Made by a program: the position numbers and the translations under genes. Positions 561 through 10,921 of a DNA stretch of 13,421 nt are shown here, in pieces. Source of the DNA: Archangium sp. (GTDB lineage Bacteria; Myxococcota; Myxococcia; Myxococcales; Myxococcaceae); contig JANLPS010000035.1 in assembly GCA_031367385.1 (NCBI GenBank), forward strand, positions 1-13,421, given 5' to 3'. Below the pieces are notes generated by a model. That model had not been told where the DNA came from. It saw only the letters and a program-made list of their open reading frames with translations, and made no database searches. Position 1 is the stretch's first letter, and each line of letters opens with the position of its first letter.

Positions 561-2915
561 CTAGACGCTCACCAAGACCGCGCACACCTGGCGCACCTGA
601 GGCTCGGGGTCGCTGCTGGCGGCCCGAACCAGGGCCTCCATCGCGCGGGGCGTTCGCAACGAGGCCAATGAGGCGGCCGCGGCTTTTCGAACCGCCGTCG
701 AGGGCGAGCCCATCGCCGACAACAGCGCCTCGTCGGCCTCGTGGGTATGCAAGCGTGCGAGCGCCGAGGCCACCAGCGAGGCGAGCTCGTCGTCAGCTGT
801 CGCCAGCGCAGCCGAGAGCCCGGCGACCCGTGCGGCCCCGGGCACCGAGAGAAAAGGGCTGACCCGTTCGCGCTCGGCGGGCACCGCGGCCAAGGCCACC
901 AGCGCGGCGGTCGCCTCGACTCCGGGCAGCGCGGCGAGAAACCCCAGCGCAGCCGAAGCGACGTTCTCATCGGCATCGGTCGCGGCGGTGATCAGCGCGG
1001 GCAAGGCGGCGTCTGCCGCGCTCTCGGTCAGCGCGGAGAGCGCCACCAACCTGGTCGACGCATCTGTGTCTGCCGCGGCCTTGAGCAACACCGGCAGCGC
1101 CTCGGGGCCTCGGCTGAGCCCCAAGCCAATCAAGGCCGCCCGCTGCATGTCGGGGTCAGTGCCTTCGGCGGTACGTCGCAGCGCCTGTTGGGCCTGAGGC
1201 AGCTTGAACGCCGACAGCGCCTCGACCGCGGCCACTCGAACCTGGCCAGCGTCGTCATGCAGCAGCGCCTCGAGCCGGGCGCACGTGGCGTGGGCTTGGC
1301 GGCGGCCGAGCGCCTGGCACGCGTAGTACCGAACCCAGGCGCGGGCATCGTCGAGCGCGGCGAGACAGCAAGCGTCGATGCGGTCGTCGCGCAACGCGCA
1401 TTGGCCCAAAGCCCGCAGCGCCGCGGCTCGAATCTTCTCGTTGTCTTCACGGGCTTGGCCCAGCAAGGCCTCGACGGCTTCAGGCGCCTCGAGCAAGGCG
1501 AGCCCGGCCATCACGATTTCACGAGCCGGCACGTCATCACCGCGGAGCGCCTCGAGAAACAGCGGCAGCGCCTCGGGAAAAGCGAAGTAGCTCAAGACCT
1601 GCAGGGCACCCCGGCGAATCGCCGGCCTCGGGTCGGTGGCCGCGCGCAGGGCCATCGCCTTGGTCTGGGCGCTCCCGAGCGACTGAATGGCCCCACCCGC
1701 CGCCTGAACGACCCGGCGGTTGGAGTCGGCGAGCAGCTCGAACAGCGGGCCCGACGCCTCGACCGCACCGACCCGGGCCAGAGCCTCGCAGGCCAACGCA
1801 CGAACCAAGCCGTCGCCATCGGTGAGGCACTCGGAGATCTCGGCCTGCGCGCTCACGCTGCTCATGATCGGCAACAAAATCTGTCGGCGGGCGCTGTCAC
1901 CGCTCCGCAGCGCGCCTCGAGCCTGCTGATCGGCCTCTTTGCCGAGGCGCTTGAGGGCGGCAGCGGCCACTGCGCTGACGGCGCGAGGCTCGTCGAGCAG
2001 TGAGCACAGCCCGGCGATGGCATCGGGGCCGCCGAGCGCGCCGAAGAGCTGAGCCAAGGCCCTCTGTTCTTCTTCGCTCGCGGTCGCCAGGCTTCGGGCC
2101 ATGCGCGCGATGGCGCTGGCGTCGACCTGGGCACGCCTCAAGGTCTGCTGCGGCGCCTCGAGGTTGCCGTACCGCTCGAGGTGGCGGTGGTGGAGATCGG
2201 CCAACGCCATCGCCGCGACCCGCGTCACCGATTCGCTGGGGTGCGAGAGCAGCGCGAGCAGGGGGCTGATCGCCGCCGACTCTCCGGTTCGGCCCAGCGC
2301 GCGGGCGACCTCGAGCTGGTACATCGAATTCGAGATCAACTTCGCCAACGGAGGGATCGCGCGGGGGTCACCACACCGGCCCAGCACATCAATCGCGGGG
2401 AAAACTCGAAAAAAATTGCCGCTTTGCACGGCCGAGATCAGCGCTTCGATCGCTACCGGCCCGCCGATGCGGCCCAGTGCCTCGATCGCCGCCACCGCCA
2501 CGTTGTCATCGACGTGGTTCACCAGGGGCGCGAGCACCCGAACACCGTTGGCGTTTCGACGCCGCCCGAGCACCTGAGCGGCATCGGCGACGACCGCCGG
2601 GTTTGCTTCGAGCGCCAGCGCAGTGACGGCGCCCAGCACGTCTGAGAGGCTCGCCACCAGGGCATCGACCGCGGCGGCGATGCGCGCTTCGTTGTCGCGG
2701 CGCTTTCGCAGCACCTCACACAACGCGTCTACCGCTGGCTGACCCAGCAGGCTAAGCGCCGTGACCGCTTCGCGACGCACCGACCAGCTTGGGTCTGAGA
2801 GCCCCTCAATCAGCGCCGCCACGCCACCCTGCCCCAGCGCCAGCTGTTTCTGCACCTCATTGACCCGCTGCTGCTCGGCGGGGGTCAAGGCGGCGGCGAT
2901 GGGCCGGTGGTTCAT
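561..2915 (-). CDS. HEAT-repeat (PBS lyase-like) protein, Cpc7-like, 784 aa
   Basis: Repeated L..D....VR..A..ALG motifs along the whole length ([46 protein letters not shown]). Lies between mcp and cheR, as cpc7 does in the M. xanthus che7 cluster. ATGA overlap with the mcp stop. Confidence 0.92.
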
Positions 2916-5461
2916 GACTTCTCCGGGGCCCCTGGGTTCGGGTGCCCGCGTTCGGCCTTCGCAAACGCCGCTCCCAGAGAGACGACCTGCTCGGCCTGCT
3001 CGACGTTCGCGAGCCGAATCTTCTGAATGTCTGCGGCGACCGAGCGAATGTCGGCCGTGGCGAGGGTGGCGACCTTGAGCTGCTGGGCAACACCGCTGGC
3101 GACGTCGCGCGTTTGAACCCGCGCATCACCAATGACCTTCACCACCTGCTCACTGGCTGATTGTTGCTCGAGAATCGCTCGCGAGACGCCTTGGAGCGCG
3201 CCGGTCTGCCGCGCGACGGTCTGAGAGATGGAGCTGATCGCCTCGGCTTGCTCGGCCAAGCCCTTGGCCGAGACCCGGGCAGCCCGACGAACCTCGTCTG
3301 AGTTCTTGACCAGCGACGAGATGCCCTGGGTCTGCTCGATGGTCGCGGTGTTGAGCGAGGCCGACAAGCGGGCCAGCTCTCGGGCGGTGGCCTCGACCTC
3401 TTTCGAGACCTTGGCCTGCTCAGCGACGGCGCGGGAGGTGTGCACCGCCTGGTTGCGCGCATCGTCCATCGCGCGGGCGACCCCGGTGGCGCCCTTGGCC
3501 TGCTCGGCGAGGCCGGTGACCGCGCGCTGCAGCGACATCGACACCTCTTTGCTGGCGACGGCCTGGGTGGCCAACGCCTTGGTCTGCTCGCTGATCGAGC
3601 TGGCGGTCTTGTGCGTCAGCCCTCGCATCACCAACGAGGCCTTGGCCAGCTGGGCCGCGCTCGTGGCCTGCTCCTCCATGGCGCGTGACACGTGGGCCGC
3701 CCCGGCGGTGAGCCGCGCGTTGGCCTTGACGACCTCTCGCAGCGCCCGGGCCTGCTCGAGGGTGGCCTCGCGGGTCTGCCGAGCCATCTGCCGCATCTCG
3801 GAGGCGCCCTTGGTAAGCAGCTGCGTGGCTTGGGTCTGTTCGGCGGCGGCGCGGGCGATGTTGTGGCTCTCTTGGCTCAGCTTGAGCGCGTTCTTGCCCA
3901 GCGCGCTGACCGCGTCGCTCTGCTCGACGGAGGCCCGCTCGACCTCTTTGACCGAGGTGCTGACCTCATTGACTCCCCCGAGAATCGCGCTCAGCGCCTC
4001 GTTGGCCGACTCTGCAAGGCGGCTGCCCTCTTCGGCGACCTTGGTGTTCTCGGCTGACGCGGTGGCGGCTTGCCGCGCGGTCGACTGCAGGCTGCGCACG
4101 ATCTTCGCGACGTCGCTGCTGGCGGTGGCGGCGCGATCGGCGAGGGCTCGAATCTCTTCTGCGACCACCGCGAACCCGCGACCGTGCTCGCCAGCGCGGG
4201 CGGCCTCGATGCTGGCGTTGAGCGAGAGCAGGTTGGTGCGGTCAGCGATGAGATTGATGGTCTGAACGATGTCGCCGATCTCCTCGACCCGCTTGTCCAT
4301 TTCTTTCATCACCGCTGACGACTCGCCAATCGACGCCCGAATCGTCACCAGGCCCGAGATCGACTTCTTGAGCGTGACGGCGCCATCGCGCGCGTCGGTG
4401 CTAACCCGCGCCGCGGTCTGCCCCGCGCTCTGCACGATGCCCAAGATGCGCTTGGTGGCCACATCAAGCTCGCCAGCCCCGGCGGCGCTGGTCGAAGCCA
4501 TCAAGTTGAGCTGCTCGGCGCTCTTGGCGACCCCGGTGGCCGAGCGGGCTGACTGCTCGATCGCCGCAGCGTTCGAATCGACGGTGGCGGCGTTCTTTTC
4601 GGCGGTCGAGGCGACCTGTTCGACGGAGGCCGCGATCTGTTCGGCCGCGCTGGCGTTCGAAGCGGTGGTGGCCTCGAGCGCTTTGGCCTGTTCGGCGACC
4701 GCGCGCACCGAGCGCGACATCTCTTCTGCGGTGGCCGAGGTCTCTTCGACCGCGCTGGCCATCTCGAGTGCATCGCGCGCCACCACGTCGAGCCCGGCGC
4801 TGACTCCGGTCACGCCGCTCGACATCGCGACCACCTGGTCGGCGGCGGCCTTCGAATCGGTCGACAAGCGGGTGATGCCCTTGGCCATCTCTTCGATGGT
4901 CGATGAGACCTCTTCGATGGTGGCCGCAAGGCTCTGGCCCCGACCGGCGATGTCAGTGACGCTGGCGCTGGTCTGGGTCACGGTCGCGGCGAGCTCTTCG
5001 CCGAGGCTGGCCAGGTCGGCGACGTTCGAGCTGACGCCGGTCACGGAGCGGGCGAACTGCTCGAGGGTCACCGAGGTGCTCTCGGCCGAAATGGCCAGCG
5101 CTTCACCTGATTTTTGAGCGCTCGAGACCGACGCGGCGAGCTCAATCAGACCGGCGGCCGAGGTCTCGAAGCCGCCGAGCGTGTCGTTCACCGAAGCCGC
5201 GATGGTGGCCTGCGAGCGCGCCACCGACTGCACCGTGCTCAGCAGCTCTTCGATGCTGACCGCGAGGGTCTCGGCGCCGGTTCGAATCTCTTCGGCGCTG
5301 GCGGCCTGCTTGGCCCCGCCAGACGCCAGGCGGGTCGCAGCCTCTTCGACCGAGAGCGCATGCTTCGCGGTCTCACGCAGCGAGCTGGCGGTGCTCTTCA
5401 CCTGCGTCGAGGTGTCCGGGTGGCCATTCGTGCCGTTGGTGCTCTTCGTTTTTTTGGCCAT
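2912..5461 (-). CDS. mcp: Cytoplasmic methyl-accepting chemotaxis protein, 849 aa, no TM or sensor domain (Mcp7-like)
   Basis: Conserved signalling tip [37 protein letters not shown]; the rest is Ala/Ser/Thr-rich coiled coil with EE/EQ pairs; no hydrophobic TM stretch; AGGAG ribosome-binding site upstream of the ATG. Confidence 0.96.
2996..3925 (-). repeat. Degenerate 28-aa (84-bp) tandem repeat in the C-terminal arm of the MCP
   Basis: Twelve [E/Q]Q dipeptides at an exact 28-residue spacing: EQSDA, EQTQA, EQARA, EQATS, EQTKA, EQAKG, EQAKV, EQTQG, EQAEA, EQQSA, QQLKV, EQAEQ. First Glu codon at 3925, last at 3001, i.e. 11 x 84 bp apart. Confidence 0.9.
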
Positions 5462-5465
5462 GGTG

Positions 5466-5903
5466 CTACTCCTGTGGAAGTGCGTCTTGCCCGATGATTT
5501 TCGAAAAATCGATGCGCATCACCAACCGCGTGCCAGCCTGCGCGACCTGGCTCACGAACCCTCTTGACTGCTGCTCGACCACCGCTGGTGGGGGGTGAAA
5601 CGCGTCGCTCTCGATGCGAACGACCTCGCGGGCCGAATCAGCGAGCAGGCCCACGGTTCGAGCCCCGTCGCGCACCACGATCACCCGTGAATCGAGCCCT
5701 CGCGGCACCGGCTGAAGCCCGAAGCGCGCTCGCAGGTCGATCACCGGTATCACCTGGCCACGAATCTGAACCAGCCCGGCCACGTACGACGCCGCACCCG
5801 GCACCTCGGTCGCTCGAACGAACGACTCCATCTGCACAACGTCGGAGGCAGGTAAGACGTAGTCGGCGTCACCGACCTTGAACAACACGTGCAGCACGCT
5901 CAT
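5466..5903 (-). CDS. cheW: Chemotaxis coupling protein CheW, 145 aa
   Basis: [29 protein letters not shown] and VGLLAD are CheW motifs; lies between cheA and mcp; ATGA overlap with the cheA stop. Confidence 0.97.
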
Positions 5904-7915
5904 GACGCGGCCCCGCTGGTGCTTGCGCGTTCAACCAGCGCGAGCAGGTCGAGCACCAAGGTGGGCTGCCCGTCGCCCAGGTCAGTGCTGCCTGAGATGC
6001 CATCGACCGTCACCAGCGCGTCTTTGAGCGGTCGCACGACGATCTCTTGCTGGTTGAGCATCTTGTCGACCTCGAAGGCGAAGCGTTTGTCGCTCTTGGC
6101 GACGATGATGGCGATCGGCTGGGTCGCGGCGGCGCCAGAGAACCCGAGCAGCGCGCCCAGCTTGAACAGCGGCACCGACTGCCCCCGGTACTGCAGCAAC
6201 CGCGCGGGAGACCCGCGGCCTGTGAGCATCGGGGGCCCTGAGACGGCGGTGGGTGCGATCTCGACCAGGTCGTCGACCGAGCTGACCGGCACCACGAAGG
6301 TGCGCGTCGCCGACAGAAACGAGAAGGCGTCGAGAATGGTGACGCTGAGCGGCACCGTCAGCATGAACCGGGTGCCCCGCCCTGGCTCGGTGCGCAGCTC
6401 GAGCTGGCCGCCGAGGTCGTCGCAGACGATGCGCTTGACGATGTCCATGCCCAAGCCGCGGCCGCTGGTGTGGGTCGCCTTGTCGAGGGTCGAGAGCCCG
6501 GGCCGGGTGATCAGCGCGAGCAGACCAGCGTCATCGGGCGGCACGGGCTTGCCGGCGCGCCGGGCGACCTTCACCGCATCGATGCCGCGCCCATCGTCAG
6601 CCACCACGAGGGTGAGGTGGCTGCCAGACGAGGCGACGCAGGTGATGTCGATGCGCCCCTCGGCGGGTTTGCCGTTGGCTTTTCGTTCATCAGGCAATTC
6701 GATCGCGTGGTCGACCGCGTTTCGAAGCAGGTGCACGATCGCCGGCGCCAACCGGTCTGCCACCGACTTGTCGAGCTCGCTGCGCCCCGCGTCGAGGTGC
6801 AACTGCACCGGCTTGCCCGAGCTTCGGCTCAAGCCGCGAATCAGCAGCGGCGTGCGCTCGAGCATCTCGGCCACCGACACCATGCGGGCCCGCATCAAGG
6901 CGGCGCGCAGGTCTCGGAGCTGGCGCGCGTTCTCGCCCAGAATGGCGTTCAGCTCGCGAAATTGAACCTGGCCCTGCGACACCGCCGCCACCGAGCGCTG
7001 CAACCGCAGCCGGGTCACCATCAGCGCCGAGAGCACCTCGAGGGCGTCATCGAGCCGCTGCACCTCGACCCGCACCACGTTGCGACCCTGCCCCTGGTCG
7101 TCTGACCGGTCGAGCCCGTCATCGTCGAGGGCCGCGAGCGCAGGCTCCACGCTGACCGCGATCAGCTCTTGAATCTGGTCGGGAGCGACATCGACGACCC
7201 GCGCCAGCTCGTCGTTGCCGGCGTCGGTGACCACCAGCAAGATGAAGGCGACGGCAGCGGGGGTGGTGGCGGTGGCCGGCACGCTCCGCGGCAGCACCTT
7301 GACCAGCTCGCCCAGCGAGGCGATCTGCGCTCTGACCGAGGTGATGCTCAGCCCGCGCGCCGCCCGCTCTTGCGAGGGCATGAAATCGGCTCGAATCGCC
7401 CGCTTGCCTTGCGCCAGCCCCTGCAGCAGCTGCGCTTGCTCGGCCAAAGAGAGCTTGGCGAGCAGCTCAGCCTCGAGCGAGAGGGTGCCTGACTTGAGCG
7501 CCGGCCCTGCGTCGAGCTGCAGCGCCGCGAGCGCGGTGAGCAGCTCTTTGGGCGCGACCGGCAGCGTCTCTTTTCGCGAGAGGTTGCCGACGCGCTCTTC
7601 AATCGCCTTTAACGCCCGCACGATCTGGTCGACGGCCTGCGCGGGCAGCCGCCCCCCGGAGCGATCGGCCGAGCGCAGCAGCGTCTCGAGCTCGTGGGCG
7701 ATGTCGACGATCGGCTCGGCCCCGACCATCGCCGAGAGGCCCTTGATGGTGTGGAGCGCCCGAAACAGCTCACGAACGGCCTTGGGGTTCGCGCCACCCT
7801 TCTGCAGCGACGCATCGAGCGCCACCAGACAAGCCCTCGACGCCTTCAGGTGATCATCGACCTCAGCCAGATACCCGACGATGAACTCTTCGACGTCGAG
7901 CGAGTCGGTGGTCAT
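5900..7915 (-). CDS. cheA: Chemotaxis histidine kinase CheA, 671 aa
   Basis: Hpt motif LFRALHTIKG, dimerisation region VRVEVQRLDDAL, N box HLLRNAVDH, G1 DDGRGID, G2 SGRGLGMDIV, C-terminal CheW-like domain (QEIVVRPL...GISGSTDLGDG). No fused receiver domain. Confidence 0.97.
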   Translation of the reverse strand: MTTDSLDVEEFIVGYLAEVDDHLKASRACLVALDASLQKGGANPKAVRELFRALHTIKGLSAMVGAEPIVDIAHELETLLRSADRSGGRLPAQAVDQIVRALKAIEERVGNLSRKETLPVAPKELLTALAALQLDAGPALKSGTLSLEAELLAKLSLAEQAQLLQGLAQGKRAIRADFMPSQERAARGLSITSVRAQIASLGELVKVLPRSVPATATTPAAVAFILLVVTDAGNDELARVVDVAPDQIQELIAVSVEPALAALDDDGLDRSDDQGQGRNVVRVEVQRLDDALEVLSALMVTRLRLQRSVAAVSQGQVQFRELNAILGENARQLRDLRAALMRARMVSVAEMLERTPLLIRGLSRSSGKPVQLHLDAGRSELDKSVADRLAPAIVHLLRNAVDHAIELPDERKANGKPAEGRIDITCVASSGSHLTLVVADDGRGIDAVKVARRAGKPVPPDDAGLLALITRPGLSTLDKATHTSGRGLGMDIVKRIVCDDLGGQLELRTEPGRGTRFMLTVPLSVTILDAFSFLSATRTFVVPVSSVDDLVEIAPTAVSGPPMLTGRGSPARLLQYRGQSVPLFKLGALLGFSGAAATQPIAIIVAKSDKRFAFEVDKMLNQQEIVVRPLKDALVTVDGISGSTDLGDGQPTLVLDLLALVERASTSGAAS

Positions 7916-8298
7916 GGCGTTGCCGCGGCCGAGTCGATCAATGACCTCACCTCCGACAACAACCCTTCGGGGGTGAACGGCTTGGTCAAGAAGCGTGAGG
8001 CTCCGACGCTGAGCGCTTGCTCGCGAGAAGCATCGTCACCGCGGGTCGTGATCATGATGATCGGCAGGTCTTTGAGCGTGTCTTGGCTGCGTACGAACTC
8101 GACCACCTCGAGGCCGCCGATGTCGGGCATGTTCATGTCGAGCAGCAGCAGTTCGTAGGGCCTGAGCGACAGCTTCTCGATCGCCTCGAGCCCGCTCGCG
8201 GCATGGGTAAAGGCCAGCGAGCCCTCGGGCCGCAGACAGGCGACGATCATGTCGCGCATCACCTTGCTGTCATCGACGACGAGCACCTCTCGCACCAC
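7912..8298 (-). CDS. cheY: Single-domain response regulator CheY, about 128 aa
   Basis: VVDDS acidic pair, phosphoacceptor in LLDMNMP, ITT and FLTKPF motifs intact. Two tandem GTG codons; the GAGGG site is better spaced for the second GTG (8295), so the start may be 8295. ATGA overlap with cheA. Confidence 0.95.
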   Translation of the reverse strand: MVREVLVVDDSKVMRDMIVACLRPEGSLAFTHAASGLEAIEKLSLRPYELLLLDMNMPDIGGLEVVEFVRSQDTLKDLPIIMITTRGDDASREQALSVGASRFLTKPFTPEGLLSEVRSLIDSAAATP

Positions 8299-8371: not shown

Positions 8372-8401
8372 TGACACATTTATTCCCACAGAAGACACTG
8401 C
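8372..8401 (+). promoter_or_regulatory. Candidate ECF-sigma promoter TGACACA-N17-CACTGC upstream of the sigma gene
   Basis: TGACACA at 8372-8378, 17-nt spacer, CACTGC at 8396-8401, ending 9 nt before ATG 8411. Both half-sites and the spacing recur exactly at 8944-8973. Confidence 0.65.
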
Positions 8402-8410
8402 CTTTGGTTC

Positions 8411-9037
8411 ATGCCCGGCCGAGCCCCCACCTCAGCAGACCTCGTCGCCTTGATGCAGGCGGGTGATCTCGCCGCCCTCGATCTCGTTGCCAGACAGTAC
8501 GGGCAGACGTTGCTGGCCGTGGCACGCCGGCGCTGCCACCTCGCGGCTGACGCCGAAGACGCGGTTCAGCAGGCGCTGATCACGGCCAGTGCTGCGATGA
8601 CCACCATTCGCGCCGAAGGCTCGCCCGTCGCTTGGCTGTCGACCCTGGTCTCGCGGCAGTGTCATCGAATGAATGAGCACGCCCAGAAAGAGCGCGCTGA
8701 AGGCGCCACCGACCTGCCGTGCACCTGTGACGACCCCGCCGCGCTCGCCGAGCAGCGCCAGCTTTCGGAGCGCCTGAGCGACGCGCTGATGGGCTTACCG
8801 CGCACCGACCGGCTACTGATCATGCTCTCGACCCAGGGCTTCACCAGCCTCGAGCTCGGCGAGCAGCTCGGGCTGACCAGCAACGCCGTGCGCAGCCGCC
8901 TCAAGCGCGCCCGGGCCCACCTTCGCGCGTCGCTGACACCCGCTGACACACTCGAACCGCTCGGGAGCACTGCTGAGGCGAACCCCACACCCGGAGTACC
9001 GCCCCATGCTGGAGCCCCGCCTCAAACAGACCGATGA
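8411..9037 (+). CDS. ECF-family sigma-70 factor with four Cys (C42, C84, C104-x-C106), 208 aa
   Basis: Sigma2 motifs DAEDAVQQAL and SPVAWLSTLV; sigma4 motifs ALMGLPRTDR and ELGEQLGLTSNAVRSRLKRARAHLR; Pro-rich low-complexity tail overlapping the next gene by 32 bp. Confidence 0.93.
   Translation: MPGRAPTSADLVALMQAGDLAALDLVARQYGQTLLAVARRRCHLAADAEDAVQQALITASAAMTTIRAEGSPVAWLSTLVSRQCHRMNEHAQKERAEGATDLPCTCDDPAALAEQRQLSERLSDALMGLPRTDRLLIMLSTQGFTSLELGEQLGLTSNAVRSRLKRARAHLRASLTPADTLEPLGSTAEANPTPGVPPHAGAPPQTDR
8944..8973 (+). promoter_or_regulatory. Second copy of TGACACA-N17-CACTGC, inside the sigma 3' tail and upstream of the thioredoxin
   Basis: TGACACA at 8944-8950, 17-nt spacer, CACTGC at 8968-8973, followed by GGAG (8993-8996) and ATG 9006. 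Confidence 0.65.
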
Positions 9038-9332
9038 AACCCACTTCGCCCAAGATCTGAGCTCGGCGCCACTGGTGTTGGTGAAGTTCACCGGCACCTG
9101 GTGCCCGCCCTGCCGAGCAATGCAGCCGACCCTCGACGCGCTGGTGAAAGACCGGGCCGACCTGGTGGTGCTCAGCGTCGACGTCGACACCGATCAGTCG
9201 GTCGCCCAGCAGTACGGCGTTCGCGCGATACCCACGTTGATCGCCTTTCGCGGCGGCAGACCCATCGGTCAGCTGGTGGGCAACGCTTCACGCACGGCGA
9301 TCGAGAAATTGCTCGGCGACGCTCCGCGCTAA
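9006..9332 (+). CDS. Thioredoxin-family protein (WCPPC active site), 108 aa
   Basis: LVLVKFTGTWCPPCRAM, VDVD, YGVRAIPTLIAF (cis-Pro loop); thioredoxin-sized; GGAG ribosome-binding site 9 nt upstream. Confidence 0.95.
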   Translation: MLEPRLKQTDETHFAQDLSSAPLVLVKFTGTWCPPCRAMQPTLDALVKDRADLVVLSVDVDTDQSVAQQYGVRAIPTLIAFRGGRPIGQLVGNASRTAIEKLLGDAPR

Positions 9333-9997: not shown

Positions 9998-10921
9998 TCA
10001 GTCGATGATGCTGAACAGCAGCACCACGAACAGAATGGGAAAAGCGATCGACCCGAACCGGTCGACGCGCTGCCACCCTTTTTCTTTGCCGAGGTAATTG
10101 AGGGTGAGCGACGCCACGGTGCCGATCAGTGAAACCAGAATCATGCCCAGGCACAGAAAAACCGTCTTGTCGGTGAGGGTCATGTAGTTCAAGTCGGGCA
10201 GCTGGGCGTTGATGGCGAGCATGCCGGCTGCCCCAGCGAAGAGCGCGCCGACTGAGACCGAGACGCGCGGGCTGGCGTCTTTGGGCCGAATGAAAAAAGC
10301 GCACCACGAGACCAGCACCGAGATCAGCAAGACGAAAACGACCTTGAAGTAGCGGGCGAAGCCGCTTCGATTGGCGCTGATCAACACCTCGTAGCGGCTG
10401 AAGTGGGTCTCGGCGCTTTCTGAAATCGAAACGTCACCGTAGTTCGAGTCGTAGCGGTGGTCGACGACGTGGGTTTCGAGCTTGGGCTCGATCGTCCACC
10501 CCGAGACGGCGACGCTGGGGTCGACGCCCTGACTACCGGGGTCGACTGTGAAGACGCCGCGGCTCGAGTCGATCTCCGAGTCTTCGATCACCAGCGCGAT
10601 CTTGTGATTGTCGAGCGGGTAACGCCGCAAGTCCCAGTGCTGGTGCACGGTCGCGTTGACTCGGGCCGCCGAGTAGTCTTGCCCGTCGGGCATTTTTTTC
10701 TTGATGATGTTGGTCTTCGAGTTGATTCGGCCGTCAATGATCTCGAAGGTGTCGACCGGCGATATCGTTCGGGCCGGCCCTCGAAACCAGACCCAGAAGT
10801 CGATGGTGTACTGGTTGTTCTTCAGATCGATGCTGGCGACCTGGTTGATGTAGACGCCGATGTTCGTCGTGGTGGGGGCAGGCGCCTGCGCGACCAGCAG
10901 GGCCGTCAAGAGTGTGAGCAT
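9998..10921 (-). CDS. Prokaryotic pentameric ligand-gated ion channel (Pro-loop/Cys-loop superfamily, GLIC/ELIC-like), 307 aa
   Basis: Short hydrophobic N-terminus; beta-rich ectodomain (GVYINQVASID...YTIDFWVWFR); Pro-loop DLRRYPLD; GW in loop F; pre-M1 Arg; four TM helices; M2-M3 loop LPDLNYMTLTD; M4 DRFGSIAFPILF, similar to GLIC SRIAFP. Confidence 0.92.
   Translation of the reverse strand: MLTLLTALLVAQAPAPTTTNIGVYINQVASIDLKNNQYTIDFWVWFRGPARTISPVDTFEIIDGRINSKTNIIKKKMPDGQDYSAARVNATVHQHWDLRRYPLDNHKIALVIEDSEIDSSRGVFTVDPGSQGVDPSVAVSGWTIEPKLETHVVDHRYDSNYGDVSISESAETHFSRYEVLISANRSGFARYFKVVFVLLISVLVSWCAFFIRPKDASPRVSVSVGALFAGAAGMLAINAQLPDLNYMTLTDKTVFLCLGMILVSLIGTVASLTLNYLGKEKGWQRVDRFGSIAFPILFVVLLFSIID

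Follow-up and report, generated by a model that had tools for sequence, protein, structure and literature searches.

The analysed stretch of DNA, hereafter the window, comprises 13,421 nucleotides of an Archangium sp. contig. On its forward strand, the gene of an ECF sigma factor (8411-9037, 208 amino acids) lies directly 5' of a thioredoxin gene (9006-9332, 108 amino acids), and the two open reading frames overlap. The sigma factor matched the Pfam families Sigma70_r2 and Sigma70_r4 above the cut-offs, scored 71 bits with TIGR02937 against a cut-off of 42.9, and has the sequence traits of the ECF (group 4) class. In the case of the SigZ equivalog TIGR02959, its score of 54.8 bits was below the cut-off of 168.65 bits. 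The fold and PDB searches gave generic ECFs only as the best matches, and the atlas search resulted in generic sigma clusters only. The sigma-2 domain spans approximately residues 8-97 and the sigma-4 domain residues 109-175, followed by a disordered tail (residues 176-208) which runs into the thioredoxin reading frame.

The protein search with the sigma factor resulted in 115 clusters at E <= 5e-31, with the next match at 7e-11; the named members of this clade belong to Myxococcota. Two cysteines of the sigma-2 domain were present in 115 of 115 members: Cys42 (8534-8536), at the end of the region 2.1 helix and five residues before the core-binding DAED motif, and Cys84 (8660-8662) in the region 2.4 helix. 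Within the DAED motif, D47 was conserved in 114, E49 in 112 and D50 in 111 of the 115 sequences. The linker between the domains carries a CxC pair (Cys104 and Cys106, 8720-8728), which was found in 97 of the 115 members, and 7 of the 115 had no cysteine in the linker. The C-terminal tails were free of cysteine in 109 members and had a single one in six. In the model of the sigma factor (pLDDT 86), C42 is located just past helix 20-41 and C84 in helix 72-97, and the order of the helices suggests that the two residues face each other. C42 and C84 align with V46 and A82 of AlgU, respectively. In a quick, unrooted tree of 165 rows, including 20 of the 115 clade members, the clade was recovered together (SH-aLRT 98) with a sister group, separately from the lineage with a fused zf-HC2 (ZAS) domain.

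The thioredoxin of the window is atypical. It scored 80.8 bits with PF00085, and its score with TIGR01068, 77.9 bits, was below the cut-off of 96.8 bits. The WCPPC active site (9099-9113) and cis-Pro76 are accompanied by Lys at the position of Asp26 and Thr at the position of Trp28. W32, C33, P35, C36 and P76 were invariant in 26 of 26 aligned sequences, one row with WCGPC-type variants included. The Asp26 position of 32 cassette copies was occupied by K (22), E (5), A (2), D (2) or V (1), and Trp28 was absent in all 32, whereas the three other thioredoxins of the genome keep both residues. In model thioredoxins, Asp26 is reported to activate the resolving cysteine and its loss to lower the activity (PMC9601870). 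In a quick tree, the cassette thioredoxins fell outside the starred group with the housekeeping ones. Judged from these features, the cassette thioredoxin looks dedicated to the unit, as a reductase or as a binder.

Divergently from the sigma gene lies a chemotaxis-type operon (561-8298, reverse strand) encoding a receiver, CheA, CheW, an 849-aa MCP and a 784-aa HEAT-repeat protein. A 189-aa open reading frame, cysteine-free and without a Pfam match, is convergent to the unit. Neither a sigma-70 promoter nor a terminator was found on the forward strand between 8200 and 9500. A 307-aa membrane protein without a Pfam match is encoded at 9998-10921 on the reverse strand; its layout, with a beta-rich N-terminal part and four C-terminal hydrophobic segments, gives from its sequence the impression of prokaryotic ligand-gated ion channels.

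The earlier note had reported the same motif, TGACACA-N17-CACTGC, before both genes, and the copies were recovered at 8372-8401 and 8944-8973 with 0 mismatches. At up to 2 mismatches no further sites were present in the window; the shuffled windows had at this limit a mean of 0.35 sites, with two or more sites in 10 of 200 shuffles. In the genome (7.97 Mb, 562 contigs), the exact pattern occurred twice at N17, both times in the window, once at N18 and at none of the other spacings from 12 to 23. When a weight matrix of 61 sites from outside the window was applied to the genome, only these two sites reached at least 19 bits at the right gap, and no such sites were located 5' of the three other thioredoxin genes or trxB. 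The first copy corresponds to a predicted ECF promoter, P1 (8372-8399), with the -35 element TGACACA at 8372-8378 and the -10 element ACACT at 8395-8399. The second, P2 (8944-8971, predicted start at about 8980), is indeed hidden in the sigma coding sequence as had been claimed: it lies inside the reading frame, in the tail, where the confidence of the model is low (pLDDT ~60). Just 5' of P2, a 10-nt tandem duplication (8930-8950) has created a second TGACAC, which has no matching -10 element.

The conservation of the motif was determined in 39 loci, i.e. the window and 38 clade loci (23 of 42 and 15 of 36 returned), and the remaining 40 loci served as distant-ECF controls. The clade loci are partly redundant, with 31 distinct site sequences upstream and 34 downstream and with six Nannocystis species among them; L022 and L097 are the same locus by coordinates. 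The records of L018, L020 and L021 carry names of other phyla and may be mislabelled. The earlier note had suggested a scan of homologous loci, and the motif was detected 5' of the sigma gene in 35 of the 35 loci with an intact 5' end (33 strict sites and two TAC variants, the latter from one genome). The second copy was found at the 3' end of the sigma gene, 5' of the thioredoxin, in all 38 loci with DNA there, L044 being excluded as its sequence ends inside this copy. The spacing was identical in all 71 sites. Over 282,902 bases, TGACAC-N18-CAC gave 73 matches, compared with 0-5 at each other spacing between 12 and 24. Both sites and the thioredoxin were also present in all of eight further loci, seven of which repeat genomes already counted. 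A TGACAC-type motif was found in 0 of the 40 distant-ECF loci and in 0 of 65 loci of related cysteine-pair sigmas.

The half-sites of the original proposal held in part. Across the distinct sites TGACACA and CAC were kept, whereas the terminal TGC lies outside the conserved core, TGACACA(C)-N15/16-[AG]CAC(T), or TGACACA-N16-RCAC in short form. The consensus reads TGACACAC(T)...[AG]CAC(T), and the final GC proposed at first is weak. At position 24, the upstream sites have A and G in about equal numbers and the downstream sites mostly G.

The sigma start codon was located 9 nt after CAC in 15 loci, 8 nt in 10, 10 nt in eight, 7 nt in one and 12 nt in the window, the distance being 8-10 nt in 33 of the 35 loci. 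This is where the promoter geometry of RpoE with one extra spacer base, which we assume to apply here, puts the +1 position, and the sigma mRNA is therefore predicted to be leaderless or nearly so. From the same geometry and the 7-12 nt distances in the 35 loci, the P1 start was placed at about 8408, which would leave a leader of about 3 nt. A close ATG without a Shine-Dalgarno site had been described earlier; the ATG lies 9 nt past the 30-nt motif, and a GGAG-type site is absent between them. The thioredoxin gene has a ribosome-binding-like GGAG (8993-8996) 9 nt 5' of its ATG, and GGAG or AGGA is similarly placed in most clade loci having a long thioredoxin leader.

Translated, the inner copy gives D-T-x5-x-T in 83 of 115 tails, compared with 0.5 expected from shuffling, and [VLM]-T-[HQ] in 13 of 115, this second frame being seen at the DNA level in L109. 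In L018 the copy forms a stop codon in the third frame, and in 19 of the 115 tails, many of them short or cut, it was not detectable. As the copy is kept in three reading frames, the constraint acts on the DNA. The sigma stop codon is usually the TGA formed by the T-D codons of the thioredoxin. A functional protein tail was considered and rejected, because the D-T signature is a one-frame reading of the motif and the stop codon derives from the thioredoxin codons.

The neighbouring genes were clustered using 1,790 open reading frames of at least 50 amino acids from the 39 loci. Only the sigma factor (39) and the thioredoxin (38), together with their shadow frames, were common, and the claim that no anti-sigma gene adjoins the unit is thereby borne out. 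The other clusters were confined to at most seven related loci (the six syntenic Nannocystis and other small kin groups). At +1, 38 of the 39 loci had the thioredoxin, the remaining locus being cut, and a soluble zinc anti-sigma, the trait of ECF12, was at +1 in none of the 38 loci with a readable +1 gene. No conserved metal transporter, oxidase or regulator gene was found near the unit across the 39 loci, and no sigma-thioredoxin fusion among the 115 close proteins (search up to 364 amino acids, the longest being 260). The clade is patchy, occurring in 3 of 61 relatives and 11 of 401 phylum genomes (E < 1e-70), in unrelated genomic contexts. In the host genome, TrxB is encoded elsewhere (C536) and one small soluble ZAS protein adjoins another sigma (C139). 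A second sigma factor of this genome (G000 C189, ~5352-5873) has the same sigma-2 cysteine pair (RRVCR...RNACT).

Some loci were rearranged. The thioredoxin of L022 is frameshifted. In Nannocystis punicea (L003, 5500-6900), an inserted NmrA-like oxidoreductase gene, encoded on the opposite strand, is flanked on both sides by a copy of the sigma end, inner promoter and thioredoxin start, and the intact thioredoxin retains a copy of the motif. Five other genomes had 1-5 motif matches each, 16 in total, and the six outside the cassette were not shared. These extra matches were rejected as regulon members, most of them being located within unrelated genes or antisense to such genes. One match, in a single Nannocystis genome (L092, 1501-1527), has a divergent TetR-like gene on one side and the gene of a likely flavin monooxygenase on the other, and is probably the operator of the TetR-like repressor.

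The wider lineage was collected with a profile search of 1.84 billion representatives. Among 140 scorable distant ECFs, 85 had both C42 and C84, 26 had C84 only, two had C42 only and 27 had neither, these counts being inflated by kinship. C42 was accompanied by C84 in 85 of 87 cases, and C84 was present in 26 of the 53 sequences lacking C42. The tree-aware analysis of the coupling had too few independent pairs (one starred, six in all, p 1). The ZAS-fused cysteine-pair sigmas, possibly subgroup 3 of ECF276, were detected in 84 of 201 phylum genomes, an unpublished one of which served for this tally alone, with no copy found in the genome of the window. Within 1.5 kb of the sigma, a thioredoxin gene was present in 8 of 14 sister-lineage loci (L130, a clade member, being left out) and in 9 of 41 loci with a ZAS fusion, arranged in tandem or divergently; among the other related loci it was present in 0 of 10. 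The thioredoxins adjoining sister and ZAS-fused sigmas are mostly of the canonical DFW..WCGPC type. In L103, L139, L163, L164 and L172 the ZAS-fused sigma is followed by a thioredoxin, and there are 36 further ZAS-fused loci. In L115 and L116, a sister-lineage sigma and a divergent atypical thioredoxin surround the palindrome GATGCGTCACAC-N7-GTGTGACGCATC, about 40-85 nt upstream of the sigma, which is probably formed by two overlapping mirror-image promoters. The cysteine-pair sigmas of L099 and L102 lie directly 3' of a small membrane open reading frame with a terminal cysteine motif, recalling the DUF2892 context of ECF285.

A different motif, GAA[CT]C-N16-18-[GA]CTC[TC], was found in 26 of 51 ZAS-fused and 'other' loci, with 38 sites compared with 4-12 at control spacings; its overall geometry is the same as that of the TGACACA motif. 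The ZAS-fused sigma genes are often followed by GAA[CT]CC..GGCTC[TC]. The two -35 bases in which the motifs differ are -32 and -31 if T is -35. At the position of RpoE F175, K was found in 115 of 115 clade members versus H in 19 of 19 ZAS-fused sigmas, and at the position of R171, R versus K. In RpoE, these positions have been linked to the reading of the -32/-31 bases (PMC7776599). The base differences between the motifs are matched by fixed substitutions in the residues to which their reading has been attributed. The fit is imperfect, as in RpoE the Arg at R171 goes together with C at -31, where the preferred register has A. Arg82 was also considered as the cause of A in the -10 element and was dropped, relatives with T there often having Arg too.

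The claim that the sigma factor reads the promoter and has the thioredoxin as its target is well supported by the comparative evidence, i.e. the conservation of the motif and its tracking of the sigma lineage. TGACACA-N16-RCAC is very probably the promoter of the sigma itself, with a regulon of the sigma and the thioredoxin only. In the proposed circuit, the sigma would read P1 to make its own near-leaderless mRNA and P2 in its own tail to express the thioredoxin. Thiol oxidation would join Cys42 and Cys84, perhaps with the assistance of the linker CxC, and the disulfide would bring the helices that bear the DAED motif and the surface for reading the -10 element into their active state. P1 would then amplify the sigma and P2 would yield extra thioredoxin, which, fed by TrxB, would reduce the sigma and end the pulse. 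That the oxidised form would be the active one is argued from logic only: a sigma which activates itself has to be braked, and nothing but a reductase is produced as output.

Thiol sensing with thioredoxin feedback, as the earlier note had imagined it, is plausible, and the invariant C42/C84 pair, the recurrent sigma-thioredoxin linkage and the atypical thioredoxin add support. We judge the chances evenly balanced that the sigma responds through cysteines of its own and is returned to the off state by the thioredoxin. The boldest reading, a one-component redox sigma in which the sigma-2 disulfide is the switch and the Asp26-less thioredoxin made from the tail promoter replaces an anti-sigma, is a tentative one and is given somewhat less than an even chance. 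Against the proposed circuit speak C84 alone, common in unrelated ECFs as counted above, and the absence of a nearby thioredoxin in 32 of 41 loci with a ZAS fusion, in 6 of 14 sister loci and in all 10 of the other related loci. An anti-sigma may also be encoded at some other place in the genome. The thioredoxin itself, without Asp26 in 30 of 32 copies, is a further difficulty, since this loss could mean that it is no normal reductase.

The loss of Asp26 (30 of 32) and Trp28 (32 of 32), together with the separation from the housekeeping lineage, would suit a thioredoxin-fold protein which acts as a stoichiometric redox-gated anti-sigma, binding or staying disulfide-linked to the sigma and releasing it on oxidation, instead of reducing it as a catalyst, with the same promoters. 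This is unlikely, yet it stands best among the alternatives. Like rshA, the thioredoxin gene is at +1 and has a sigma-type promoter to itself, and relatives hold a fused or separate ZAS domain at the same position. However, both active-site cysteines and cis-Pro76 are invariant in the 26 aligned sequences, and most of the thioredoxins linked to the sister and ZAS-fused sigmas are canonical ones of the DFW..WCGPC type. As the ZAS-fused sigmas already bear an anti-sigma domain, the thioredoxin there looks like an output.

Slightly less probable still is a CorE-like sensor of metals or metalloids, in which the four cysteines would be the binding site of Cu, Zn, Cd or As(III), with the thioredoxin repairing metal-damaged thiols and exerting no feedback. 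The linker CxC of 97 of 115 members and the phylum shared with CorE argue for it; in CorE and CorE2 the linker CxC is reported to be essential (PMC4937300). However, conservation of the CxC in the clade falls short of that of the sigma-2 pair, and among the related cysteine-pair sigmas it is mostly missing. The cysteine contents of the tails speak against a C-terminal cysteine-rich domain, and a conserved metal transporter or oxidase is absent nearby.

It is improbable that the cysteines are structural and that an unlinked anti-sigma, proteolysis or upstream transcription exerts the control over the sigma, the thioredoxin being a target only. The cysteine pair is old and coexists with the fused ZAS domain in relatives, and ECFs without a neighbouring anti-sigma are described to use transcription, proteolysis or phosphorylation (PMC8999054). 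However, the patchy unit (11 of 401 phylum genomes) in unrelated contexts suits a self-contained cassette, the sole small soluble ZAS found in the genome adjoins another sigma, the DAED motif is intact and the tail is not conserved. It is very improbable that the motif serves a different regulator as its operator or results from conservation of the protein: many upstream sites do resemble a direct repeat, GACAC...GACAC, but the A/G mix at position 24 upstream turns mostly to G downstream, the start codon distance is fixed, three reading frames are used, the motif tracks the sigma lineage and a conserved regulator gene is absent nearby.

The two-gene ECF module is real and sharply conserved, and is apparently undescribed. 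The portion of the ECF classification supplement text that was searched gave 0 matches for TGACAC, GACAC and CACT, and its five thioredoxin mentions include no group with a lone +1 thioredoxin (PMC7826278). In the passages of PMC6180224 with TGACAC, the mentions were incidental. The clade, the motif and the pairing were not found in the open literature that was searched; subscription journals, the ECF Hub and the tables, logos and remaining text of the Casas-Pastor and Todor supplements could hold the motif.

How ECF sigmas without an anti-sigma are held off is an open question, and cysteine switches have been proposed for several groups and tested in few. The unit offers a clean test case, with two small soluble proteins, one sharp promoter, a two-gene predicted regulon and four cysteines, and its hosts include cultured Nannocystis with complete genomes. 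It adds a promoter specificity absent from the ECF classification text searched. If the proposed circuit is true, no closed ECF feedback loop would be smaller than that of the one-component sigma and the thioredoxin, and the unit would open the way to a broad, unstudied lineage in which ECFs with the sigma-2 cysteine pair are combined with thioredoxins, be it in tandem, back to back or with a fused ZAS domain. If redox-gated, it would provide a compact orthogonal thiol-stress switch for synthetic circuits.

The proposed logic resembles the OxyR-glutaredoxin loop, in which a disulfide formed within a transcription factor activates it and a reductase induced by the factor resets it. OxyR, however, is a LysR-type activator with a large regulon and not a sigma factor. 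Among the ECFs, the uncharacterised groups ECF276, ECF284 and ECF285 are described with a deltaproteobacterial C-terminal extension, the motifs AAC/TCT and GAATCCTTT/CTCTT, and DUF2892 at -1, and the related cysteine-pair lineages resemble them, compared by description only (PMC7826278). In these descriptions none of the three groups has TGACAC/CAC or a +1 thioredoxin (PMC7826278). A cysteine pair within the sigma is also known from SigK (ECF18-19), with a reported redox disulfide in sigma-4, and sigma-2 cysteine pairs of untested role from ECF40 (SigD) and ECF250 (PMC7826278). Unlike the clade sigma, these are described with membrane anti-sigmas and belong to other phyla, ECF40 and ECF250 to Actinobacteria or Firmicutes (PMC7826278).

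CorE and CorE2 of Myxococcus xanthus (ECF238, former ECF44) are likewise myxobacterial, without an anti-sigma and with the linker CxC, and they sense by the sigma's own cysteines (PMC4937300, PMC8999054), as is proposed for the clade sigma. Unlike CorE, the clade sigma has no C-terminal cysteine-rich domain, has the invariant sigma-2 pair and is accompanied by the thioredoxin instead of metal-handling neighbours. The ECF238 motifs are described as not conserved (PMC7826278), whereas the autoregulatory motif of the clade was present in 35 of 35 loci. The clade sigma falls outside ECF238/CorE, failing on both the cysteine-rich domain and the non-conserved motif.

SigR-RsrA of Streptomyces and SigH-RshA of Corynebacterium (ECF12) are ECF sigma systems which answer thiol stress via thioredoxin induction (PMC7826278), a response that is predicted here. 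In sigH-rshA, the SigH promoter drives only the brake gene, which was proposed to give a fast shut-off, and 83 genes were up in the rshA mutant (PMC3489674). The present unit is similar in having a sigma-type promoter before the +1 gene and differs in that the +1 gene is the thioredoxin itself. In ECF12, a separate zinc anti-sigma senses and the regulon is large, whereas here the cysteines are in the sigma and the predicted regulon consists of two genes.
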